Shown here in pieces: positions 1 to 11,067 of a DNA stretch of 11,067 bases (position 1 is its first letter; every line of letters begins with the position of its first letter). The notes under the pieces were generated by a model. It was not told the origin of the DNA. It did no database searches and saw only the letters and a program-made list of their open reading frames with translations. The DNA is taken from positions 1-11,067 of the forward strand of contig CAKZTQ010000027.1 in assembly GCA_937921735.1 (NCBI GenBank), in the 5' to 3' direction. This stretch comes from an uncultured archaeon (GTDB lineage: Archaea; Hadarchaeota; Hadarchaeia; Hadarchaeales; Hadarchaeaceae). A program made the position numbers and the translations under genes.

Positions 1-394
1 CCCGATCGTTGGTGAGGAAAGCTGTGGCTCCCGCAACCCTCGCTGTGGCTAGATGCAAGGCATCTGGGGTGCGCAACCCGTAAGCTGCTCGAAGCCGCGC
101 CGCCTCCGCCGCCACCTCCACCTCCGGCGCCACATATCTGAGGTTGGGGATCCCCAACAGGTGCCTCAGGGCCTCGCGTCCGCTCTCCTCCCCTTTCTCC
201 CAAGGCTTCGCCAAGAACTCCGTAATACACAATGTCGAAGCCACAACATCCACCTCGCCCCTGGCCAGGGCAGCAAAGAGGGCCTCAGTGAACGCAGAAT
301 AAGGCGGTACGTCCTCGAAGTGGTAGATGAGAAGAGAGGTATCCACCGCGAGAATCTTGTGCTTCTTAAGGATCTTCCTCAGGACATCTTCCAA
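1..394 (-). CDS. vapC: PIN-domain VapC toxin (3' end runs off the window)
   Basis: Not in the ORF track; manual translation from TTG at 394 (GGAG upstream): MEDVLRKILKKHKILAVDTSLLIYHFE...STLCITEFL...AARLRAAYGLRTPDALHLATARVAGATAFLTNDR. Has the PIN acidic motifs VDT, E, DAL and TND, and overlaps the antitoxin stop. Confidence 0.92.
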   Translation of the reverse strand, partial: MEDVLRKILKKHKILAVDTSLLIYHFEDVPPYSAFTEALFAALARGEVDVVASTLCITEFLAKPWEKGEESGREALRHLLGIPNLRYVAPEVEVAAEAARLRAAYGLRTPDALHLATARVAGATAFLTNDR

Positions 395-627
395 GAGTCG
401 CGCTCCGCCTGGAGATAGGCCTGGATGGCCTCCTTGGTGCCGAAGGTGCCCCGCAGGGCGCCGCGGCTCCGTCGCGCATACTCCTCGGGCGCGGTGAGGA
501 TCACCCTTCCTCCCTCCAGCCCCACAAGCAACCTGTCCCCTTCCTTAAGCCCCAAGGCCTCCCGGATCTCCTTGGGGATCACAAGCTGGCCCTTCCTCCC
601 TAGCTTGACCGTTTTCAGTTTGGTCAT
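379..627 (-). CDS. vapB: AbrB/MazE/SpoVT-family antitoxin (VapB), 82 aa
   Basis: MTKLKTVKLGRKGQLVIPKEIREALGLKEGDRLLV is the AbrB swapped-hairpin signature. Lies directly upstream of the PIN gene and overlaps it. Start taken as ATG 627 rather than 912. Confidence 0.92.
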   Translation of the reverse strand: MTKLKTVKLGRKGQLVIPKEIREALGLKEGDRLLVGLEGGRVILTAPEEYARRSRGALRGTFGTKEAIQAYLQAERDSWKMS

Positions 628-700: not shown

Positions 701-1288
701 ATGAGGCTGATCGGGTACATCCGTGTTTCCTCTGTATCGCAAACCCAAGGCTTTGGTTTGGAGGTGCAGCGCCAAGCCATCGAGCAGTACTGCGCCATCC
801 ATGGCCACGAGCTCCTCGGTATCGAGGAGGAGGTCCGCTCTGCGGTCAAAACCCGCCCGATCTTCGACAAGGTCAAGGAGAAGGTCCTGAACGGGAAAGC
901 TGATGGGCTCATCGCTTATCGGCTGGACCGCATCGGTCGCTCCGTGAAGGACTTGGCTAACATCGCCGACGAGTTTCAAAGGGCTGGCAAGGCTCTTATC
1001 TTTGTGCAGAACGCCATCGACACCAGCACCCCGGAGGGGAAGCTTCTTTTCAACCTCCTGGCGGCCATTGCAGAGTACGAGCGAACCCTTCTCTTGGAGC
1101 GCACGAGGGCCGGCCGGGAGCTCGCCGAGAAGCAGGGCAAAATCTGCCATCGGCCCCGCACCCCTATCGACCCCAAGATCCTTGCGGAGATGAAGAAAAA
1201 GGGTGTGTCCCATCGAATGATGGCTAAAACACTGAGCATCTCCCGTACCACACTTCTGAAGCGTTTAAGCGAACTCGGGCTGCGTTAG
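701..1288 (+). CDS. Small serine recombinase (resolvase/invertase family), 195 aa
   Basis: MRLIGYIRVSS (catalytic Ser), YRLDRIGRS, IDTSTPEGKLLFNLLAAIAEYER, ERTRAGR, and a C-terminal HTH (SHRMMAKTLSISRTTL). Confidence 0.95.
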   Translation: MRLIGYIRVSSVSQTQGFGLEVQRQAIEQYCAIHGHELLGIEEEVRSAVKTRPIFDKVKEKVLNGKADGLIAYRLDRIGRSVKDLANIADEFQRAGKALIFVQNAIDTSTPEGKLLFNLLAAIAEYERTLLLERTRAGRELAEKQGKICHRPRTPIDPKILAEMKKKGVSHRMMAKTLSISRTTLLKRLSELGLR

Positions 1289-1471: not shown

Positions 1472-1678
1472 ATGCAGGTGTACTCTATACCTGAGATTGC
1501 CCAAATGCTTGGGGTGCACCGGGCTACTGTGCACCGCTGGGTTCAAAAAGGGTTCCTCCCCGCAATCCGCGTGGGCACAGGCCGCAAGATCTATCTCCTT
1601 CCTGAAGAAGCCGTTCAAGCCGTCTGGCTTAGTAAGCCCCGCCTGCAGAGGAAAAGACAAACGCTTAAGCCATCTTGA
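1472..1678 (+). CDS. Excisionase-like/MerR-type HTH (HTH_17) DNA-binding protein, 68 aa
   Basis: YSIPEIAQMLGVHRATVHRWVQKGFLPAIRVG matches the xis-like HTH pattern; strong AGGAGG RBS before ATG 1472. Confidence 0.88.
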   Translation: MQVYSIPEIAQMLGVHRATVHRWVQKGFLPAIRVGTGRKIYLLPEEAVQAVWLSKPRLQRKRQTLKPS

Positions 1679-1684
1679 ACGCAG

Positions 1685-2221
1685 ATGTCTCTGATCATTT
1701 TGGTTATTGCTTCGGTGCTGCTCCTTTGGGCGAGCAGTGCATCTCCGCCCACCTTGGAGCTTGTTCTTACGGACACCCTAGGCCTTTACGCCCGTAACGA
1801 AGTCCAGTGGCCGGAGGGGACGCTTACGGTGCGCGCTGGCTTAGCTTGGGGCGAGAACGGTGCCTCGCCGGAGGTCCTCGTCTCCTACACCCCTTGGACG
1901 CCCATGGTCACTATTTCCTGGTCCTGCGACTCCCTCGCGTGCATCCTTGTCCAACCAGGCCAAGAAATCACGGAAGGCCAGCTCATTGGGTACATCTCGG
2001 CTAAAGAGCAGGCCCGTGCCGCGGCCCTCGCTGAGCGTCTGCCCCAGATCCAAGACGAACTCGTGGCCGCGGAAGTCCACGCAGAGCTAGGAAAGATCAC
2101 ACAAGAGAACGAAATCCGGGCTCTGGTGCCTGGTCGTGTCCTCCGGGTGGAGGTGGAGCAGCTTGGCCGCACTCTAAAGGTGCGCGTGCTGGTGTTATGC
2201 AAAATACAACGCACTTTGTAA
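1685..2221 (+). CDS. Secreted or membrane-anchored protein with a lipoyl-like/helical-hairpin (MFP/HlyD-like) domain, 178 aa
   Basis: Hydrophobic N-terminus (MSLIILVIASVLLLWASSA). ILVQPGQEITEGQLIGY half-lipoyl motif, then a helical stretch, then IRALVPGRVLRVEV as the second half-lipoyl motif. Confidence 0.65.
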   Translation: MSLIILVIASVLLLWASSASPPTLELVLTDTLGLYARNEVQWPEGTLTVRAGLAWGENGASPEVLVSYTPWTPMVTISWSCDSLACILVQPGQEITEGQLIGYISAKEQARAAALAERLPQIQDELVAAEVHAELGKITQENEIRALVPGRVLRVEVEQLGRTLKVRVLVLCKIQRTL

Positions 2222-3369
2222 GAGGGAAAAAATTTTTTGCTGAAATAGATTCTGCTCCGTCTGTCGCGGCCGGCCACCCGCCTCCACTCTCCCCTAAAGC
2301 CCAGAGGCTAGCAGAGATCCTGTTGGCCAGATCCAGGGCAGGGACGTGCGTCGTCTCCCAGTATGAGCTCTGCAGGCTGACGGGCTGGAGCCGTGTCACC
2401 GTCTGGCGCTACCTCACCGAGCTCAGGGAAAAGGGCCTCATCAGGTGGGACCGGCGGAAGAGATTGCCCAACGTCTACCGTTTCGCTGATCGCCTCATTG
2501 ATGCTAAAGCTGCTGAACATGAGGCGCTTTTGCCCCCGGCGCTGCGACAGGCCGTAACCCAGGGGCACAACGTGCTGATCCTTGGCCCAGAGGGGATCGG
2601 CAAGACGTTCCAACTTTCCCTCCTCTCCCAGGATGGTTTGAGCGAGCGTGTTGTGTTGCGCCTCCCCGGTGGCACCATCCGCGACGTCTTGACGTCCCTC
2701 TGGGACACGCTCGCCGAGCTAGAGGCCCAGAGGGACGTGGAGTCCACCCGCAAGACCGTGAAGGAGCTCGCAGCGGAAGTACTCTCTGCCCTGAGCCGTT
2801 CCCGCCGAACCTTCATGGTGCTGGCGGACGATGTGGACCGTGCACCACCCAGCTTGCGCCGCTTCCTTTTGGGTCTTCTCTCCCTCTACAACGTCCAGGT
2901 GGTGGCCACAGCCACAGACGAGGCCCAGGTGGCGGATCTGGTGGACCATTTCCTGGTCTTCCCGCTGCCGCCCCTGTCCCAGGAGCAAACAGCGCGCTGG
3001 GTGCGGGACTTCGTGGCCTCTCGGCGCATTCCTGTCCTCGGTGGGGAACGAGGCCTGAGCAAGCTCCAAAGACTGGTCTACCTCCGCAGCCAAGGTAACC
3101 CCCGCAAAATCCAGGCCCTACTTAAGAAGATCGAGGCCCAAGGCTATGTGGACCGAAGATCTCTCCGTGAGGAGCTCCTCGTCGGGGGACGCTTCCAATT
3201 TGTGGACATGACCTGGATCCTCATCCTCACTGCCGCCCTGGCCCTGGCCATCCGCTACCTCTCCTTGGGCTTTCACGACCGCACCCTGTACGTCCTGGCA
3301 GGTCTTACCTACGCAGCAGGCATGCTCATGCGCTGGTTCTCGTATCAGTGGAGGAGGAAGAAGAAATGA
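2197..3369 (+). CDS. Winged-HTH + AAA+ ATPase + two C-terminal TM helices, 390 aa (exact start uncertain)
   Basis: wHTH SQYELCRLTGWSRVTVWRYLTELREKGLI; Walker A GPEGIGKT; Walker B MVLADD; GNPR sensor-2-like motif. Hydrophobic segments WILILTAALALAI and LYVLAGLTYAAGMLM are followed by RRKKK. Confidence 0.85.
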   Translation: MQNTTHFVRGKKFFAEIDSAPSVAAGHPPPLSPKAQRLAEILLARSRAGTCVVSQYELCRLTGWSRVTVWRYLTELREKGLIRWDRRKRLPNVYRFADRLIDAKAAEHEALLPPALRQAVTQGHNVLILGPEGIGKTFQLSLLSQDGLSERVVLRLPGGTIRDVLTSLWDTLAELEAQRDVESTRKTVKELAAEVLSALSRSRRTFMVLADDVDRAPPSLRRFLLGLLSLYNVQVVATATDEAQVADLVDHFLVFPLPPLSQEQTARWVRDFVASRRIPVLGGERGLSKLQRLVYLRSQGNPRKIQALLKKIEAQGYVDRRSLREELLVGGRFQFVDMTWILILTAALALAIRYLSLGFHDRTLYVLAGLTYAAGMLMRWFSYQWRRKKK

Positions 3370-5309
3370 GGCTGCGCACGCATATGCTCAGTAGTCCCTT
3401 CTTCCTTGTGTTGGCGTCTCTTTTTGCGGGGACGCCTCTGGCGCCGGTCGGACCTGTGCTAGCCGCTACGACTGTTGGCGCAGCCTTGCCGGAGGTGGAT
3501 AAGCCTCACAGTCTAGTAGGCCGGCTCTTCCCTTTTTCCGCGTGGATCCACGAGCGCTTCGGCCACCGCGGCCTCACCCATTCTCTCTTGGGCCTGGCCT
3601 TGGTCGCAGGCTTGGCTGCGCCTCTTGCCCTCTTTGCCCGTTCTGTCTGGCTCGCCCTCCTTGTGGGCTACACCTCGCACCTCGTCCTGGATATGGCCAC
3701 GCTGGAGGGCGTGCCGCTCCTTTGGCCCAAGCGCACTCGCCATGTCTTCCCAGGCCGTGACAACCTCCGCATTGACCAATCCTCGCCCGCGGCGGAGCGC
3801 AAGGAGCTAGCCCTCTCCGCCATCATGGTAGCCGGAGCCCTGGCCCTGTGGCCGCTCACGCAAACCGGGCTCACCAGCACCCTCCGCCGCGCCCTGGGGA
3901 CGCTTCCGGAGAGCCTGCCCGAGTACCGCAAACTAGCGGGCGAGTACGAAGTCTTCCTCACTGGCACCTTACAGGATAGGTTGACCGGTCTATCCCACGA
4001 GGGTGAGTGGCCCATCGTGGGAACCTACGGCAATGGCTACCTGATCCGTGTGGGCGAAGAGCTACGGCTGGTGAGCGAAGAGGGCGGGAGCCTCCATCCA
4101 GTGCGTGTGGCTCTGAGGAAGGGCACGCCAATCCATGTCGTTGTGCAAGAGTGGTCCTTCACTGGCCCGATACACCGCCTCTTAGCCGGCATCGACGCCA
4201 AGGTCGAGCACTATATCACCGGCACCTTACGCCTGGATAGACCTGTGTCCTTGACCTTCTCGCCCGCAGCGTTCCCCACCATTCAAGGCCGCGAGCATCT
4301 GACTCTGACCTATGCCCGTACTCAGGACCTCGCAGCTTTGGCAGACGCTGGGGTGGTGGAGGGCCGACTGCAGGTGATATACCGCTTGCGGCCAGGCCAA
4401 AGCATCTCCGTAACCACGGAGGCCTCTCGGCCGCCCGAAGCGAGGCCTCTGGAGATGAAGCTGAGACTACAGTCCCTTTCGGACCTCTTGGTGGGTGAGG
4501 GTGATGTCGTAGCGGAGGGCGAGCTCATGGGCTACGCCTACGTGCCTGAGCTGGCACAGAAACGGCAAGAGCTTGCTCTCGCCCAGGAGCGCTACCAAGG
4601 AGGCCTTATCTCTGCGGTCGAGCTGGCGAAGCTCTCCGCAGAAGTGGAGGCCCTGGAGGAGCGCGCTGCCATATACGCCAAGTTTTCCGGGAAGGTGCGG
4701 GAGATCCGACTCCTAGGCGCAGACGCCGGAAGCGTAGAGGTTGTGGTGGTAATGGTGCCGTCCTCGGTAACAGAGGTAGTGGGAGGCAGGGTCTTGGGAA
4801 CCTCCGCCACCCCGAGCTCAGAGCTTTTGCCCTTCTACCGCGCGTTGCCGGAGCTGTCGGTGGATCACGGGGAAGTAACCTACGTGGTCAAAGCCATCGA
4901 CGGCGACACTGTGCAGATCCTCTACCAGGGGCGAGCACAAAGCGCGAGGCTAGTGGGCTTGGACACCCCGGAGACCAAGCATCCGCGCAAAGGGGTGGAG
5001 TGCTTCGGCCCAGAGGCCTCTCGCTACACCAGCACCACCCTGCCCCGCGGCACCGAAGTGCGCATCACGTTCAACCCCTTGGGCCAGAAGCGTGATAAAT
5101 ACGACCGGCTTTTGGTGTACCTATGGGTCCAGCTCGACGACGACGAGCCGCTAGAGCTGTTCAACGCCGCCCTAATCCGCCTGGGCTATGCCCGCATGTA
5201 CCCATTCTTCAAGTTCGACCGGGCCCAGGAGTTTCGGAACCTGGAGGACATGGCCCGGAAGGAGGCGCGCGGCCTGTGGGGAGCGTGCGGATATGAGCCG
5301 TACCGGTGA
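3366..5309 (+). CDS. Fusion protein: YdjM-family membrane metal-dependent hydrolase + MFP-like domain + thermonuclease (SNase), 647 aa
   Basis: ATGA overlap with the ATPase stop. YdjM motifs RTH, GAALPEVD, HRGLTHS, GYTSHLVLDMAT..GVPLLWP. MFP-like LLVGEGDVVAEGELMGY...IYAKFSGKVREI. SNase motifs IDGDT, RLVGLDTPE, DKYDRLL, ARKEARGLW. Confidence 0.9.
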   Translation: MRLRTHMLSSPFFLVLASLFAGTPLAPVGPVLAATTVGAALPEVDKPHSLVGRLFPFSAWIHERFGHRGLTHSLLGLALVAGLAAPLALFARSVWLALLVGYTSHLVLDMATLEGVPLLWPKRTRHVFPGRDNLRIDQSSPAAERKELALSAIMVAGALALWPLTQTGLTSTLRRALGTLPESLPEYRKLAGEYEVFLTGTLQDRLTGLSHEGEWPIVGTYGNGYLIRVGEELRLVSEEGGSLHPVRVALRKGTPIHVVVQEWSFTGPIHRLLAGIDAKVEHYITGTLRLDRPVSLTFSPAAFPTIQGREHLTLTYARTQDLAALADAGVVEGRLQVIYRLRPGQSISVTTEASRPPEARPLEMKLRLQSLSDLLVGEGDVVAEGELMGYAYVPELAQKRQELALAQERYQGGLISAVELAKLSAEVEALEERAAIYAKFSGKVREIRLLGADAGSVEVVVVMVPSSVTEVVGGRVLGTSATPSSELLPFYRALPELSVDHGEVTYVVKAIDGDTVQILYQGRAQSARLVGLDTPETKHPRKGVECFGPEASRYTSTTLPRGTEVRITFNPLGQKRDKYDRLLVYLWVQLDDDEPLELFNAALIRLGYARMYPFFKFDRAQEFRNLEDMARKEARGLWGACGYEPYR

Positions 5310-5670
5310 GCGTTTGCGTGGGTCCTTTGTGGTGCCGGGCCGGCCGGTGCCGGCCCAGCGCATGACCCGCTACGGCAAGTGGCGCGAGCGGGCCAAGAAG
5401 AGCCTGGAGTATCAAAAGCTCGTGGCCCTAACGGCCTGGGCCGCCCAGGTCCCACAGTTCACAGGCCCTGTGAAACTCACCTGCCGCTTCTTCTTCCGCA
5501 ACGGCCAGCACGGCGACCTCAGCAACCTTGTGAAGTCCATCGAAGATGGACTTCAGTACGGCGGGATCCTTGTGAACGACCGGCAGGTGATCCGGTACGG
5601 CGAAGGAACCGGGATTTACTTCGGCCCGGAGGAGCGGGCCGAGGTATGGATTGAGGAGGTGGACCCGTGA
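5293..5670 (+). CDS. rusA: RusA-family Holliday junction resolvase-like protein, 125 aa
   Basis: FVVPGRPVP..R, FTGPVKLTCRFFF, GDLSNLVKSIEDGL, ILVNDRQV and terminal ERAEVWIEE follow the RusA pattern. Confidence 0.8.
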   Translation: MSRTGERLRGSFVVPGRPVPAQRMTRYGKWRERAKKSLEYQKLVALTAWAAQVPQFTGPVKLTCRFFFRNGQHGDLSNLVKSIEDGLQYGGILVNDRQVIRYGEGTGIYFGPEERAEVWIEEVDP

Positions 5671-5939
5671 ACCGGCGGAAAGGATATCAGACCCGATGGA
5701 GGGCATTCGTGACCACCCGCGGCGAGCGCACGGAGTGGTTGCAGCTCCATGCCGGCCACTGGCGCTTGGTACAGCCTGAGGGAGACGCGCAGGTATTCCG
5801 TGGGCCCCGCGGCTGGGCCGCCGTCATAGGTGGGAAGTTTGTGGACTACTACCCTACGCGGGCCCTGGCCATGGAGGCGGCTTTGGAGTGGCTGCGCCAG
5901 CAGGCCACCCTGGCCGAGCAGGAACAGCCATGGACCTAG
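5667..5939 (+). CDS. Hypothetical protein, 90 aa
   Basis: GTGA overlap with the rusA stop and GAGGAGG upstream; operon-like packing; no family recognised. Confidence 0.7.
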   Translation: MNRRKGYQTRWRAFVTTRGERTEWLQLHAGHWRLVQPEGDAQVFRGPRGWAAVIGGKFVDYYPTRALAMEAALEWLRQQATLAEQEQPWT

Positions 5940-6235: not shown

Positions 6236-6264
6236 CGTCTAGATCCTCCGCTCCTTCCCGCCAT

Positions 6265-6321
6265 GCTGACCGTGGGCGCCGGCTGCCATGCCGGCGCCCG
6301 TTGCACCGTCGGCGCTTTTTT
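6265..6321 (+). terminator. Probable terminator of the main operon
   Basis: GGGCGCCGGC(6274-6283)/GCCGGCGCCC(6290-6299) perfect 10-bp stem, outer GCTGAC/GTCGGC pairing, T6 at 6316-6321. Confidence 0.55.
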
Positions 6322-6324
6322 GAG

Positions 6325-6837
6325 GTGATCCTCGGCAGCTCGCCGGCCCCTCGGCAAATTGCTGCCGCAAATTGCCGGGCCGGCTCGCTTGCCTCGGGAG
6401 GCGGCGGGGCTTCGCCGGATCGGCCCGCGCGGCACCGGCGCAACACGTGCGTGCCCACGAGTTGCTGTGCCTTGCGCTTCGCGCATGCCGCGCGCGCCTC
6501 CCGGCTCATCCCCGCCGCCAAACCGCCTGATCACAAGCCGCGTTTAACACAGCCCGGCTAAAACCGCCGTAAATCGCCTCCGTCGAAGGACCATGGTCCC
6601 CCCCACCCGGAGGCCATTTTTGGGGCTCTTTATGGGGATAGGGGACGCGCTCGGCCCACGCTCGGCCACGCGGCCGTTTCGCGTCGGCCGCCCGGCCCTG
6701 GCGGGCCTTGGGCCTCGCGCGGTCCTCGCTTGAGCTGCGCGCGTCCTCGCGGGCCCCCCGTCCCCGCTCGGCCGCGCTCCGCAGGGCGGCGGAGCCTCCT
6801 CGCTGCGCTGCGGGGTCTCCGCCGCGGAGCTCCCTGC
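6325..6837. repeat. Two clusters of nested inverted repeats (multi-branched fold; sso/ssi-like or structured RNA)
   Basis: Pairs 6325-6330/6529-6534, 6342-6349/6377-6384, 6400-6409/6510-6519, 6427-6434/6486-6493, 6643-6650/6739-6746, 6776-6782/6824-6830, 6788-6794/6817-6823. No credible ORF here. Confidence 0.65.
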
Positions 6838-6874
6838 CGTCCTCCCCCACCCGCCCGCCCTGAGGAACGAAAAA

Positions 6875-7123
6875 CCTTTTCGGCCGGGCGCCCTATTTTG
6901 CGCGCCCGCCTGTGGCCCGCGGGCCCTCCCGGGGGGTGCTCGCCGCCCCCACGGGTCCTCCCGCGCCCTCCGGGCTGTCAAGCGCCTCGCCCGTGAAGTT
7001 GCGCACCTACGGCCCGCTAAAGGCGGGCGGTGCGCAACTTCCGGGCCGGGGACAAGCCCCACTCTGCGGCGCTTGACAGGGCCAGGCTGGGCGCGTTTCA
7101 CCCCAGGCGCCCGGCCGAAAAGG
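6875..7123 (+). promoter_or_regulatory. Large branched hairpin; putative Frpo-type single-stranded-DNA promoter
   Basis: Perfect stems of 18 bp (6875-6892/7106-7123), 12 bp containing TTGACA (6975-6986/7068-7079) and 13 bp (6995-7007/7029-7041). Unpaired region at the -10 position. AGGAGG and ATG 7142 lie directly downstream. Confidence 0.72.
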
Positions 7124-7141
7124 CTGGGCAAGGAGGTCAGC

Positions 7142-8378: not shown

Positions 8379-9131
8379 CTAGGTGGCTGAGTGGACAGGG
8401 CTTTTCTCCACAAGACCAACATCGCTCATATATAGAAGGACAGGTCGGGCCGTAGGGCCAAGCCGGTTTTTTACCACCTCAAGCACCCGCAGACCGTTCC
8501 CGACGTAAGAGAGTTTGAGCACCACATCTACTACGTGTTCCATCATCCTCGGACCCGCCAAGCCTTTCTTGCTCACTTGGGTTACAAGAAGGACGCAGGC
8601 ACCAGTTTGCCGGGCAAATCGCAGGCACTCCTGCCCCGCCTCTCGTTGGGCTTGGGGACTGCCCGGGGTCAAACTGGCCCGCACTGTCACCAAGGGGAGG
8701 GAGTCGACAATCAGAAGTTCCGCGCCTGCGGCCCGGCGCAGAGCCCGCCTTACCAGGAACTCTTCCAAAAATACAATGCCCGATGCGTCTTGAAGGACAC
8801 GCTTCGCTCGCTCCCGCACCACCTCGGCTCGCTCCTCCGCACACATGTACACCACCAGCCCGTACCGCCTAAAAACTCCCGCAACCTGTAGGGCTAGCGT
8901 GGACTTTCCCACCCCAGGCTCACCGCCCAGGAGAAGAACGCTCCCTGCGGGGAGGTCCGCAAAAAGGCCAAAGAGAGCAAAGCCTAGGGAAAATCTTTGC
9001 GGAGTCGCTCCAGGTTTTCTTTGGGTCTTTTCCTCCTCCTGGAATGGCAAAAACGCTCCCCAAGTGCCGCAGGAGGGGCAGACCGCAAGCGGCCCAGGTT
9101 CCACACGGCCACACCACCGGCAAAAGTACAC
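8379..9131 (-). CDS. radA: RadA/Sms-like protein lacking the C-terminal Lon-like domain, 250 aa
   Basis: YFCRWCG...CPSCGTW C4 zinc finger; GGEPGVGKSTL Walker A; YMCAEE; LLIVDS Walker B; LAGPRMMEHVVDVVL; KNRLG (compare RadA KNRFG). Confidence 0.85.
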   Translation of the reverse strand: MYFCRWCGRVEPGPLAVCPSCGTWGAFLPFQEEEKTQRKPGATPQRFSLGFALFGLFADLPAGSVLLLGGEPGVGKSTLALQVAGVFRRYGLVVYMCAEERAEVVRERAKRVLQDASGIVFLEEFLVRRALRRAAGAELLIVDSLPLVTVRASLTPGSPQAQREAGQECLRFARQTGACVLLVTQVSKKGLAGPRMMEHVVDVVLKLSYVGNGLRVLEVVKNRLGPTARPVLLYMSDVGLVEKSPVHSAT

Positions 9132-9148: not shown

Positions 9149-9445
9149 TCAGCCTGCCTCCTGCACGGCCTGGGCCAGGCGAACCAGATCGCCTTGGACG
9201 AGGCGAAGAGAAGCCTCCACGATGGCAGATTTGGAGGCCAGGGAGGGGGATAGACCCTGCTCCCGCCTTAAGCGAAGCCGCAGGTCCTCCAGGAGCTCTA
9301 CCGCTTTGGGGTTGAGGTAGAAGGTGACTTTCTGTTTCTCCGGTTTACTGGCTTGCGGTTTTGCTGGTATGCCTGCTTGCGGGCCAAGGAACACCGCCTC
9401 CAACCCCCGCAATTTCTCCTCATTAAGCGCCGCCCTTCTCGCCAC
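9149..9445 (-). CDS. Ribbon-helix-helix partition protein (ParG-like), 98 aa
   Basis: GTG 9445 with AGGAGG 9 nt upstream; overlaps the parA end. KVTFYL beta strand, then a helix, then the SKSAIVEASL helix; flexible N-terminal tail. Confidence 0.7.
   Translation of the reverse strand: MARRAALNEEKLRGLEAVFLGPQAGIPAKPQASKPEKQKVTFYLNPKAVELLEDLRLRLRREQGLSPSLASKSAIVEASLRLVQGDLVRLAQAVQEAG
9343..9382. repeat. Degenerate 8-bp tandem repeats (parC-like)
   Basis: GTTTACTG GCTTGCGG TTTTGCTG GTATGCCT GCTTGCGG within the linker of the parG-like gene. Confidence 0.5.
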
Positions 9446-10187
9446 GCCGCACCACCTCCTTGGCAATCCTTCTTAGGGCCTCGGCACCTTCTCCGTCAGG
9501 GTCGTAAGCGAGGATGGATTTCCTCGCCACCGGTGCCTCCCTGAACCGCACGCTCTTCCGCACCGGCGGAAGAAGAACTTCCTTAAACCGCTTCTCTAGA
9601 GCGTCCAATACTTCTTGAGCATGTAGGGTTCTTGCTTCATATAGGTTGGGAAGAACGCCGAGCAGGCGCAGGCCTGGGTTCAACCCGTCCTGGACCCGCC
9701 GGATCGTAGCGAAAAGCAAAGCTAGCCCCCGCAGGGCCAAGTACTCGCACGAAACGGGCACGAGGACGAAGTCCGCCGCTAGCAAAGCGTTGAGGGTGAG
9801 AAGGCCCAAGGAGGGCGGGCAGTCCACTAAGACCCAATCACGGCCGGGGACCTTGGCCAGAGCCCGGTGCAGCCGCTGGTGGCGGTCCGCAAAAGCAAGG
9901 AGTTCCACCTCCGCTCCCGCCAGGTCCAGCGAGCTCACGGCCACCTCGAATCCCTCGGCGCTTGTTAGGGTCGCCTCCCTCAGCTTTTCCGGCCAAAACA
10001 GAGCCTCATATACTGTCGCCCGCCCTTTGTGATCTTCCCCGAAAAGCCAGGCGGTGAGGGCCATCTGGGGGTCGAGATCCACCGCGAGGACGCGCTTTCC
10101 CATCTCGCTGAGCGCGGCAGCAAGGCCCACCACGGTTGTGGTCTTCCCCACCCCGCCCTTCTGGTTGGCCACCGCTAATACCGTCAC
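9423..10187 (-). CDS. parA: ParA/Soj-family partition ATPase, 254 aa
   Basis: VLAVANQKGGVGKTT deviant Walker A, VDLDPQ, DWVLVDCPPSLGLLTLNALLAAD, VRKSVRFREAP. Start taken as GTG 10187. Confidence 0.95.
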   Translation of the reverse strand: MTVLAVANQKGGVGKTTTVVGLAAALSEMGKRVLAVDLDPQMALTAWLFGEDHKGRATVYEALFWPEKLREATLTSAEGFEVAVSSLDLAGAEVELLAFADRHQRLHRALAKVPGRDWVLVDCPPSLGLLTLNALLAADFVLVPVSCEYLALRGLALLFATIRRVQDGLNPGLRLLGVLPNLYEARTLHAQEVLDALEKRFKEVLLPPVRKSVRFREAPVARKSILAYDPDGEGAEALRRIAKEVVRRGEKGGA

Positions 10188-10188
10188 A

Positions 10189-10360
10189 GCTTTCCAGTTT
10201 ACCAGAAAACTGGCTTTTTCACCTTCACCCCCGACCAGTTTACTATGTTCCTTTCGCCTTGCTGCCCATGCTTTGCACCGGCTGCAAGTGCATTGCCCAC
10301 CGGACGGGGCATGGCATGCGCTCTTACCCCTCGATGGCTTAACAGCATGCCAGCAAGCTG
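10189..10360. promoter_or_regulatory. Candidate centromere/operator repeats upstream of parA
   Basis: GCTTTCCA GTTTACCA GAAAACTG (10189-10212), GTTTACTA (10238-10245), GCTTAACA GCATGCCA GCAAGCTG (10337-10360). CCAGTTTAC occurs at both 10194 and 10235. Confidence 0.5.
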
Positions 10361-10445
10361 TCAAACCTTATAGGGTTGCTGTGGAGCAAGACGCGCTCGG
10401 TAAGCCCGTTTGCCCTCGTAGAAGCAAACAAAGGTGGAAGAGGAT

Positions 10446-10956
10446 TTACAGGATCCTGAAATCCGGAAATTTCCCGCGGGATCTAACAGAACGTGGACCG
10501 GTTAAGGGGCTCCATGGGCGACCGGCAAGGGTTGTTTCTGTGATCGCCCCAAAGTACGGCGATAGAACCTTAAGGATGTCCCCTGCTTCGAGGAGCTCCA
10601 GTCCGCGCACCCGGCTGAAGTGCTTGCTGTTCCGGGTAAGGAGCGGCAACCCTCTTCCCAGCCAACAGCCAGCGATTAACAAGTCCATCGCCCTTCGCCC
10701 GCAACTCACGATTGACCGCCCCAGCTCGCAGGGCTGATGGACGATCTGGGACCACGACGTGGACCGCTTGGGTTAAGAGCTCCGAGTCATGAAGCTGGTC
10801 AGGAGTCTGAGCACCGCAGGCCAACTCGAACAACGTTACGCTCGTCACGGCCAGCGGGACCTCTTGCAGGAGGTTCCTTGAGCACTTCCGCCGAGGGCGA
10901 TACCCCGGCAAAAAGTCGATCAGGATGTCCGTGTGTGCAACGACGTACCCGCCCAT
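10446..10956 (-). pseudogene. vapC: Frameshifted PIN-domain VapC toxin
   Basis: N-half (VVAHTDILIDFL...TSVTLFELACGA...ELRAKG) and C-half (MDLLIAG...LPLLTRNSKHFSRVRGL) are in different frames, switching near 10690. The first catalytic Asp position reads His. Confidence 0.8.
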
Positions 10957-11067
10957 TGCTTGCGGAGCTCCTCGATCGCAGCCCTGGTCCGCTTGGCTTC
11001 CTCCCGTGTCCGGGCCCCCTTCCGGTTCAGTAAGGCACGGCTGGCCTCCTCAGCCTCCGCATGGTCC
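10920..11067 (-). CDS. C-terminal part of a probable VapB-type antitoxin (5' end outside the window)
   Basis: Manual translation ...EEASRALLNRKGARTREEAKRTRAAIEELRKQWAGTSLHTRTS*; overlaps the start of the PIN gene as antitoxins typically do. Confidence 0.55.
   Translation of the reverse strand, partial: DHAEAEEASRALLNRKGARTREEAKRTRAAIEELRKQWAGTSLHTRTS

Follow-up and report, generated by a model that had tools for sequence, protein, structure and literature searches.

A plasmid-borne gene pair for a membrane-anchored AAA+ ATPase and a long YdjM protein, a candidate DNA-handling module of the cell envelope

The DNA analyzed here (the window) is the entire contig CAKZTQ010000027.1 (C27; 11,067 nucleotides) of the assembly GCA_937921735.1, and it carries three overlapping genes at 1685-5309, called here ORF1, ORF2 and ORF3 (open reading frames). 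ORF2 codes for a putative membrane-anchored AAA+ ATPase, and ORF3 for a protein in which a YdjM membrane domain is followed by a beta domain, a module resembling pump adaptors and a nuclease. Judged from sequence comparison, the ORF2–ORF3 pair, newly recognized here, is a module conserved across many bacterial phyla and found in one archaeon. The reading favored, to which a rough probability of 35% is given, is that these proteins form an ATP-dependent, envelope-spanning machine for DNA handling or DNA transfer. The three genes are the following.

1685-2221, plus strand: ORF1, 178 amino acids, a hydrophobic N-terminal anchor or signal and then about 150 amino acids forming a putative paralogue of the lipoyl/alpha-hairpin module of ORF3
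2197-3369, plus strand: ORF2, 390 amino acids, with a winged helix-turn-helix (wHTH) at about 2287-2490, the AAA+ domain at about 2536-3174 and a predicted transmembrane hairpin at about 3193-3363
3366-5309 (3348-5309 in the list of open reading frames), plus strand: ORF3, with the YdjM domain at 3366-3860, the beta domain at 3933-4400, the lipoyl/alpha-hairpin module at 4437-4766 and a staphylococcal-nuclease-type (SNase) domain at 4866-5306

A first-pass annotation, made from the sequence of the window without database searches, had described three overlapping genes, and their positions are as it gave them. ORF1 and ORF2 overlap by 25 nucleotides, and the overlapping chain runs past 5309 into a RusA-like gene (17 nucleotides shared with ORF3) and from there into the small gene o5667 (4 nucleotides). 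The ATG at 3366 is a likelier start of ORF3 than 3348, because it is preceded by GGAGGAGG and overlaps the ORF2 stop codon as ATGA.

By its motifs and predicted fold ORF2 is a AAA+ ATPase. The family keeps Walker A (GxxGxGK), Walker B (DD.D) and a sensor-2-type motif, GNPRK, and Foldseek placed the predicted fold (predicted local distance difference test score, pLDDT, 80) with RFC, the gamma complex, TnsC and Orc1/Cdc6 at E 5e-8 to 8e-7. The Pfam matches to AAA_22 (3.3e-5) and AAA_16 (9.4e-5) were both below the Pfam cut-offs, and therefore no AAA+ subfamily was assigned. The wHTH, at residues 31-98, matched HTH_Crp_2 (E 2.4e-8) and MarR_2 (5.6e-7), and in PHROGs it resembled the wHTHs of phage replication initiators (about 3e-5) and DnaD-like proteins. 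In the predicted model the C-terminus consists of two helices, 333-356 and 363-389, and no other part of the protein is as well conserved as this transmembrane hairpin, whose column identity is 0.80 versus 0.61-0.75 for the AAA+ domain. The first-pass description of ORF2 as a wHTH, a AAA+ domain and a transmembrane part was borne out by the Pfam HTH matches, the kept Walker motifs, the fold match and the C-terminal helices.

The YdjM domain of ORF3 (PF04307; E 4.3e-23, 82.1 bits with the cut-off at 29, over residues 7-144 of the 653-amino-acid form) consists of five helices at residues 1-165 and keeps the YdjM motifs H, D, GHR..THS and SH...D. The residues H6, D45, H67, H72, H105 and D109 are invariant in 12 ORF3 sequences, and D45, H67, H72, H105 and D109 are at least 90% conserved across the 86 long relatives described below. 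In phospholipase C and P1 nuclease the zinc site has a first half that the H..D..H / HxxxD pattern of YdjM may resemble; weak Zn_dep_PLPC matches were present in two of the 86 long relatives, and the protein of the plasmid pL4C matched at 5e-4. One paper describes the YdjM family as a possible phospholipase (PMC11442139). Of the metal-binding membrane domain proposed at first, the YdjM match and the His/Asp cluster stand, and it is from those residues that metal binding is suggested. A phmmer search of the YdjM domain against PDB sequences gave as its sole match FlhB at E 0.017, which is a chance match.

The remainder of ORF3 was assigned mainly from a model built of 12 sequences (mean pLDDT 71.7, the SNase part being poor). 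The beta domain at 190-345 was well modelled, and over the first 78 of its residues it is superposable on the beta subdomain at the C-terminus of the TrmB sugar-binding domain (Z 11, rmsd, the root-mean-square deviation, 1.8). Residues 358-467 are predicted to form a beta sandwich with an inserted helical hairpin, matching EmrA, 4l8j, Spr0693 and MacA-MexA with VIA Z values of 5.7-7.2, which are below the tool's caution line of 8 and similar to those for sandwich hybrids that are not membrane fusion proteins (MFPs), namely NusG-DII, RNA polymerase inserts and NqrA; the module is therefore termed MFP-like and not MFP. The beta-barrel and membrane-proximal domains of MFPs were not seen, HlyD_3 and HlyD_D23 matched neither ORF1 nor ORF3, and no lipoyl-type Pfam match was found in the window proteins. 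A word-index search with a wide alignment returned the close family and two weak MFP matches only, and a profile search of the PDB was swamped by SNase entries.

The C-terminal domain matched SNase (PF00565) at 3.3e-18 (66.5 bits, cut-off 21) and the Staphylococcus aureus nuclease in phmmer at E 2e-27, over 139 residues with about 39% identity. The positions DGDT, R, DTPE and R (YxR), which presumably have the catalytic and calcium-binding roles, are kept, so that the nuclease looks active by its sequence and the placing of a nuclease in the fusion gene at first reading was sound. ORF1 is probably an anchored paralogue of the lipoyl/alpha-hairpin module of ORF3: tblastn joined ORF1 85-157 to ORF3 at about 345-461, and a profile of ORF3 170-470 matched the ORF1 of the window at E 9e-9 and its homologues at 1e-7 to 1e-14. 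The claim of two lipoyl-hairpin domains holds to the extent of the sandwich and hairpin of the ORF3 model and this paralogy, not for the further domains of a true MFP.

In a set of 5.8 billion proteins, 12 ORF3-like (51-76% identical) and 16 ORF2-like proteins were found, and 14 related loci were compared, 13 on metagenome contigs and one in the genome G001. ORF2 lies directly 5' of ORF3 in all ten metagenome or metagenome-assembled genome (MAG) loci with enough upstream DNA, ORF1 is kept 5' of ORF2 in all the loci reaching that far (8/8), and RusA is 3' of ORF3 in the eight that extend past its end. The arrangement thus appears to be more than chance, since proteins of both kinds exist with conserved synteny. 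In two lineages, P0012/L106 and G001, a nuclease of the phospholipase D (PLD) type takes the place of the SNase. Full-length ORF3 was present in two of the 66 genomes of the phylum, the source MAG (G000) and G001 (40% identity), and the other matches were free-standing SNase genes.

The wider family was collected with the ORF3 170-470 profile from 1.84 billion cluster representatives, giving 260 proteins at E ≤ 1e-3 and 116 at E ≤ 1e-10. Most of these relatives have about 550 amino acids, the match beginning near residue 170. Among the 150 matches listed, 85 had at least about 470 amino acids and were taken together with the window protein as 86 long relatives, and the 65 shorter, probably partial ones were dropped. 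YdjM was found in 82 of the 86, Biotin_lipoyl_2 in eight, and HlyD_3 with HlyD_D23 in one; a nuclease head was present in about one of seven (13/86: SNase 8, PLDc_2 4, Endonuclease_1 1). From these counts the general architecture appears to be YdjM and the beta domain, often with a lipoyl/coiled-coil hairpin. A scan of contigs with two YdjM motifs gave 74 short generic YdjM loci and no long one, and is uninformative on the chromosomal share of the long form; viral contigs, when scanned, yielded a single generic YdjM. Two YdjM clusters of the ESM Atlas (559-575 amino acids, scores 0.80-0.81), commonest in Bacteroidota, are a lead only.

When ORF3 1-470 was used as a tblastn query, 34 plasmid records were matched, all of them typed non-mobilizable: Thermus (10), Synechocystis (7), Nitrosococcus (3), Haliscomenobacter (2), and single records from Allochromatium, Methylobacter, Gloeocapsa, Anabaena, Moorena, Stanieria, Thermococcus, Thiospirochaeta, Flammeovirga, Spirosoma, Flavobacterium and Jeotgalibacillus. 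The ATPase of Nitrosococcus as query gave 18 plasmid records, all included in those 34. The same part of ORF3 had no match at E ≤ 1e-6 in 50,697 phage records. An ORF2 homologue adjoins the YdjM gene in 13 of the 14 plasmid loci inspected, and in the fourteenth, Thiospirochaeta, it is about 4 kb off, beyond an IS110 element. The plasmid ATPases share the hairpin motif across the phyla, and the wHTH is mostly absent. The neighborhood survey proposed with the first-pass annotation thus found the ATPase and the long YdjM gene together, in the close loci as well as on plasmids, and the habitat it had anticipated, plasmids in which no relaxase or type IV secretion system (T4SS) is recognized, was the one observed.

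The genes accompanying the pair differ between the lineages. In the operons of the two Thermus loci the ATPase and small ORFs are accompanied by a protein of the TolC family (OEP 1.7e-9), a presumed lipoprotein, a coiled-coil ORF and a long YdjM protein with a long hairpin, and at both a convergent thermonuclease gene codes for a signal-like N-terminus, with an Excalibur domain in pL4C (Pfam). In Nitrosococcus, Allochromatium and Methylobacter the ATPase is followed by YdjM and the beta domain only, in the latter two after a coiled-coil protein with a hydrophobic N-terminus. In Synechocystis pSYSX, Gloeocapsa and Anabaena the ATPase and the YdjM–beta domain protein are followed by a TrwB_AAD_bind/DUF87 ATPase, two of the three reaching 31-39 bits (cut-off 20.5). 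In Synechocystis and Anabaena the TrwB-like ATPase is succeeded by a separate protein matching the lipoyl/hairpin half of the profile, and in Stanieria such a protein follows a gene annotated as a GIY-YIG nuclease (L188:9151-10611) that comes after the pair; matches to this half in the cyanobacterial operons had E values of 4.8e-8, 1.2e-7 and 3e-6. The TrwB/HerA-like ATPase of Gloeocapsa (L185:8047-9462) gave a weak GIY-YIG match, at 21.8 bits below the cut-off of 22.6. An SNase with a lipobox-like N-terminus lies about 4 kb downstream of the pair in pSYSX, and a DNA/RNA non-specific endonuclease with a signal-like N-terminus two genes downstream in Thiospirochaeta. Thermococcus barophilus pTBMP1 has a PLD-like protein, three ORFs, the ATPase, YdjM and a large surface protein of the NEW3/CARDB type.

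In Flavobacterium pA5BP1 a Phage_integrase domain is fused ahead of AAA+ (Pfam), and the ATPase match also sits in a tyrosine recombinase gene of Spirosoma and in genes called site-specific integrase on both Haliscomenobacter plasmids. Such a fusion would be a membrane-anchored recombinase.

L182:6019-7593 (pA5BP1), L187:5239-6744 and L191:6337-7854: recombinase–AAA+–hairpin genes of Bacteroidota plasmids

Matches at E ≤ 1e-5 were obtained also in eight of 400 sampled genomes of the class of Pseudomonas flectens, one more genome being unscored and one of the eight, the unpublished G208, entering this tally alone; about half of the eight cover the hairpin half only and may be ordinary adaptor proteins. 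In one gammaproteobacterium copies were located at 3.16 and 3.91 Mb of a single chromosome-sized contig, with the ATPase adjoining the 3.16-Mb copy (E 1.5e-94). From these and the plasmid records, the pair is rare and mostly plasmid-borne among the loci seen, not strictly plasmid-confined. The full-text literature gave no account of the pair or of long YdjM proteins, subscription journals and supplements lying outside the search, and the accessible parts of the accounts of pL4C and pTBMP1 name only partition, integrase and replication-family features.

The YdjM loops that face the N-terminal side of the helices average 11.6 lysines and arginines, those facing the opposite side 4.2 (12 close homologues). 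By the positive-inside rule the His/Asp cluster would therefore be cytoplasmic and everything past helix 5 outside, and we infer that the beta domain, the hairpin module and the nuclease are extracytoplasmic. Two cysteines are kept in all 11 SNase-type members, and the partner nucleases of the relatives begin with a hydrophobic, signal-like N-terminus or have a lipobox or Excalibur domain; the cysteine pair, these exported nucleases and the TolC-family partner agree with the predicted topology. The anchor of ORF1 has no charged N-region, and its orientation is therefore deduced from the homology to the ORF3 module. Outer-membrane tethering proteins of the Thermotogae type have been reported in Bipolaricaulota, according to a preprint (bioRxiv 10.1101/2021.05.31.446380), and a periplasm-like space is hence plausible.

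According to the favored reading, ORF1, ORF2 and ORF3 would make up one envelope-spanning complex of a small plasmid. ORF2 would bind DNA through its wHTH and cycle ATP through a AAA+ domain like those of ORC, clamp loaders and STAND proteins, the conserved hairpin holding it in the membrane and possibly docking on the five-helix YdjM domain of ORF3. The beta domain, the adaptor-like module and the SNase would then lie outside, and as ORF1 gives a second, separately anchored adaptor-like copy, ORF1 and ORF3 may form a periplasmic ring or duct. Such a complex would handle DNA at the expense of ATP and could offer plasmids free of relaxase and T4SS a route to release or pass on DNA, with the exported nuclease processing or clearing DNA at the outer end. 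DNA traffic was considered to fit best because it explains together the pairing, the cytoplasmic fusions to DNA domains, the parts outside and the plasmid habitat. The additions recur on both sides: wHTH, tyrosine recombinase and TrwB-like ATPase on the cytoplasmic one, and, outside, hairpins of the adaptor-like type, a TolC-family protein and no fewer than four kinds of non-specific nuclease. In the Bipolaricaulota element the module belongs to the invariant core. The broader proposal, that the pair is the core of an unrecognized T4SS-independent DNA-transfer apparatus on plasmids of at least six bacterial phyla and Thermococcus, completed by lineage-specific parts, is doubtful.

Several observations weigh against DNA transfer. 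The element has no relaxase, origin of transfer (oriT) or known translocase, and the AAA+ domain falls in switch and loader clades (clamp loader, ORC, TnsC, STAND) and not with FtsK/HerA/VirD4. Unless controlled, a non-specific nuclease at the outlet would degrade the exported DNA, and a nuclease is fused in just 13 of the 86 long relatives. At the gammaproteobacterial loci inspected there was no nuclease, no ATPase like type IV coupling proteins and no adaptor-like module, and the TrwB-like ATPase was seen in cyanobacteria only. ComEC (PF03772) exceeded the cut-off in none of the 66 phylum genomes, of which 26 have a completeness of 90% or more, but in 10 of the 14 control genomes, so that DNA released for transformation would have no known receiver here. 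The typing as non-mobilizable hinges on the relaxases that are known, and two genera, Thermus and Synechocystis, dominate the 34 records. The pair at 3.16 Mb of a chromosome-sized contig and the restriction-modification and toxin-antitoxin genes neighboring the module on several plasmids point the same way. The first-pass idea of a minimal DNA export system other than a T4SS accordingly gained from the co-occurrence, the plasmid habitat and the TolC-family and TrwB-like additions of the relatives, and lost by the type of the AAA+ domain and the many nuclease-free relatives. The whole phylum seems to be without the canonical channel for DNA uptake; also DprA was not found in the source MAG.

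Nearly as likely as DNA handling is exclusion or defence by a surface nuclease, a tentative explanation in which a STAND-like NTPase senses or regulates while a YdjM/adaptor scaffold holds a periplasmic or surface nuclease against foreign DNA and protects the resident plasmid. The first-pass annotation had kept it as its alternative, and it came out about as well supported, by the swapped exported nucleases, the STAND-like signature and the neighboring genes. Three unrelated exported nuclease folds are fused at one place in the long relatives (SNase 8/86, PLDc_2 4/86, Endonuclease_1 1/86), PLD replaces SNase in P0012/L106 and G001, and nucleases stand beside the pair in both Thermus loci (thermonuclease), pSYSX (SNase), Thiospirochaeta (endonuclease) and Thermococcus (PLD-like protein). 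The ATPases give nSTAND1, AAA_16 and NACHT signals, that of Nitrosococcus reaching 32.1 bits on nSTAND1 (cut-off 27.1), and restriction-modification, Vsr and toxin-antitoxin genes adjoin the module in pL4C, pNHAL01 and pTthSNM7-6d. Element-borne periplasmic DNases are known to block natural transformation in Campylobacter. The host phylum lacks ComEC and hence would have no transformation to block. Neither does this explanation account for the cytoplasmic DNA-binding and recombinase fusions of the ATPase, and 73 of the 86 long relatives have no fused nuclease. PADLOC-DB 2.0 (2023) gave no system for ORF2 or ORF3, only a match of the SNase domain (C3a212, 5.7e-30) and weak HTH matches; the phage records held no copy; and a place in the core gene set of a 9.5-11 kb element would better suit a selfish plasmid function.

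Plasmid maintenance and nuclease secretion explain less than DNA traffic or exclusion. ORF2 could be a membrane-tethered initiator, loader or segregation ATPase serving replication, dimer resolution or partition, with the YdjM protein as its receptor, which would suit the likeness of its wHTH to those of phage replication initiators and DnaD-like proteins, that of its AAA+ domain to Orc1/Cdc6 and clamp loaders, the recombinases fused or adjacent, the RusA gene coupled to the operon, and the ParA/ParB genes adjoining the module on plasmids of Gloeocapsa, Stanieria and Thermus. No other Rep gene was recognized on the element, but other plasmids with the pair have an annotated Rep of their own (RepA in Methylobacter, a replication initiation protein in Haliscomenobacter). 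As most ATPase homologues have no DNA-binding domain at all, and as this model leaves no role for the exported nucleases, the TolC-family partner and the large part predicted outside the cytoplasm, maintenance is unlikely. Still less probable is that the module secretes or presents a nuclease in a type-I-like manner, for feeding on extracellular DNA or remodelling biofilms, the ATPase–YdjM pair replacing the ABC transporter. The adaptor-like module and TolC-family protein of Thermus and the export of the nuclease would be expected of such a system; the covalent fusion of the nuclease in the family of the window would not, nor would a core pair that exists without nuclease, adaptor-like module or outer membrane, as in Thermococcus, and a near-exclusive plasmid habitat is unexpected for a nutritional trait.

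In comparison with known systems, the hairpin modules would share with the HlyD/EmrA/MacA adaptors working with TolC the predicted lipoyl-type sandwich with an inserted alpha-hairpin and the inner-membrane anchor; relatives match Biotin_lipoyl_2 and HlyD_3, and the Thermus operons carry the OEP/TolC-family protein. They differ in having no beta-barrel or membrane-proximal domain, no ABC, RND or MFS partner, and YdjM as the anchor; unlike in HlyD-type systems the energizer would be a AAA+ protein with a transmembrane hairpin, and the fold similarity was modest (Z 5.7-7.2). The YdjM of Escherichia coli and S. aureus (PF04307), a LexA-regulated inner-membrane protein that the N-terminal 165 residues of ORF3 match at 4e-23, is a stand-alone chromosomal protein of about 200 amino acids, whereas ORF3 adds about 480 predicted extracytoplasmic residues and is always paired with AAA+.

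SNase and PLD-type nucleases occur on conjugative plasmids, RP4 ParB and pKM101 Nuc being exported nucleases of plasmids, and both types are found as alternatives in the family of the module. The plasmid nucleases are free and secreted, but that of the module is tethered to a polytopic membrane protein. The cyanobacterial module resembles systems with type IV coupling proteins in its TrwB_AAD_bind/DUF87/FtsK-like ATPase after the pair, which the element of the window does not have. DNA is moved by means other than a T4SS in the TdtA transjugation of Thermus, the Ced system of archaea and the TraB system of Streptomyces, and the likeness would be a membrane machine paired with an ATPase on relaxase-free elements. 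With STAND and nSTAND NTPases the ATPases share AAA_16, NACHT and nSTAND signals, but they are very short (300-390 amino acids), with a membrane hairpin, no sensor repeats and no PADLOC system match.

The contig looks like a plasmid-like element of about 11 kb of a Bipolaricaulota MAG (1.06 Mb, 60 contigs, 83% complete). Its GC content is 0.628, versus about 0.55-0.61 in the large contigs of the MAG. NCBI labels one ORF3 homologue and one ORF2 homologue as Candidatus Bipolaricaulaceae, and one ORF2 homologue as a Thermococci archaeon. Outside the three genes the window contains the following features.

2-621, minus strand: PIN toxin and AbrB/MazE antitoxin
701-1288, plus strand: small serine recombinase of the resolvase type (Resolvase 6.3e-38)
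1472-1678, plus strand: excisionase-type HTH gene (HTH_17 3.2e-12, TIGR01764 6e-11), ending 7 nucleotides 5' of ORF1
5293-5670, plus strand: RusA-like Holliday junction resolvase (RusA 1.1e-7, phrog_140 3.7e-14)
5667-5939, plus strand: o5667, a conserved ORF of 90 amino acids without a family match
6236-7141: gene-free stretch with a GC content of 0.69-0.74
6975-7079, no strand: conserved structured non-coding element within the gene-free stretch
8379-9131, minus strand: Zn-ribbon and RecA-fold ATPase with AAA_25/KaiC/RadA/DnaB-like signals
9149-10364, minus strand: ParA partition ATPase (AAA_31 3.2e-48) and a small downstream partner ORF

Two small ORFs sit 3' of RusA ahead of the gene-free stretch, four lie between that stretch and the gene of the RecA-fold ATPase, and a second PIN gene is located beyond ParA near the right end. 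Copies of the serine recombinase, 90% identical, precede the operon in the metagenome loci L098, L103 and L110. The RecA-fold ATPase is a core gene in all related elements and the sole helicase-like candidate; no replication initiator was recognized on the element. Library scans of 16 window ORFs found no relaxase, VirB4 or coupling protein, and no capsid or terminase was seen. ABC, RND and TolC components, VirB4/VirD4 and relaxase had been absent also at first sight, in line with the scans, which matched no transporter or transfer gene on the contig. VirB4 (PF03135) and the type IV coupling protein (PF02534) were unmatched in the MAG, 83% complete as it is, where no separate search for a relaxase family was made. 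Neither megablast of the window in full against the plasmid and phage collections nor Rfam and tRNA scans of it gave any match. The idea of a membrane-containing virus was rejected on the lack of capsid, terminase and portal signals in PHROGs, the ParA and toxin-antitoxin genes and the absence from phage records.

A circle of about 11 kb fits the data, because the gene order in L104 and L108 is a circular permutation of that in the window, and in L098 and L103 DNA matching the right end of the window directly precedes the recombinase found near its left end. The window itself has no exact terminal repeat, and among the contigs from the sequencing runs none joins both ends or spans the window. 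Its sequence was present in two DNA sequencing runs of one study, labelled marine metagenome, with short contigs; no RNA run was listed among the runs carrying it. In run X1 the word depth was about 636 at 10702-11067 and about 17 over the rest of the contig, the former being a repeat common to other DNA. The right end breaks within an antitoxin gene at this high-depth repeat, which is probably why the contig stops there. In L106, positions 7631-13377 and 17143-22889 form a 5.7-kb direct repeat (period 9512 bp, 99.8% identity) spanning the RecA-fold ATPase and ORF1 to ORF3, which represents either a tandem copy or two strain variants of an element of about 9.5 kb joined in a concatemer.

The structured element at 6975-7079 has an outer 12-bp stem with TTGACA on both arms and an inner hairpin with arms of about 30 nucleotides. 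It is the best-conserved DNA of the whole element (81% to L106), and eight of its 38 predicted pairs are compensatory in four sequences; it has no Rfam match. A promoter working on single-stranded DNA had been proposed downstream of the operon, and the compensatory pairs show the conserved structured element there to be real. Its possible roles are those of an origin, of a small RNA, or of a site for initiation or promoter activity on single strands.

About half of the sequenced plasmids have no recognized means of transfer. The module is almost confined to plasmids without known transfer, from Bipolaricaulota to Thermus, cyanobacteria, gammaproteobacteria, Bacteroidota and an archaeon, it is predicted to span the envelope, and its associates include DNA-binding domains, recombinases, coupling-type ATPases and exported nucleases. 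Whether its role lies in moving DNA, in keeping DNA out or in anchoring the plasmid, it points to a recurrent plasmid function that apparently has never been named. If the pair is part of a transfer apparatus, this would explain how many plasmids typed as non-mobilizable move between cells. The module would also give a first functional context for the YdjM family, known as an SOS-regulated membrane protein in E. coli and S. aureus. The copies on the plasmids of Thermus thermophilus and on pSYSX of Synechocystis PCC 6803 bring the module within the reach of ordinary genetics.

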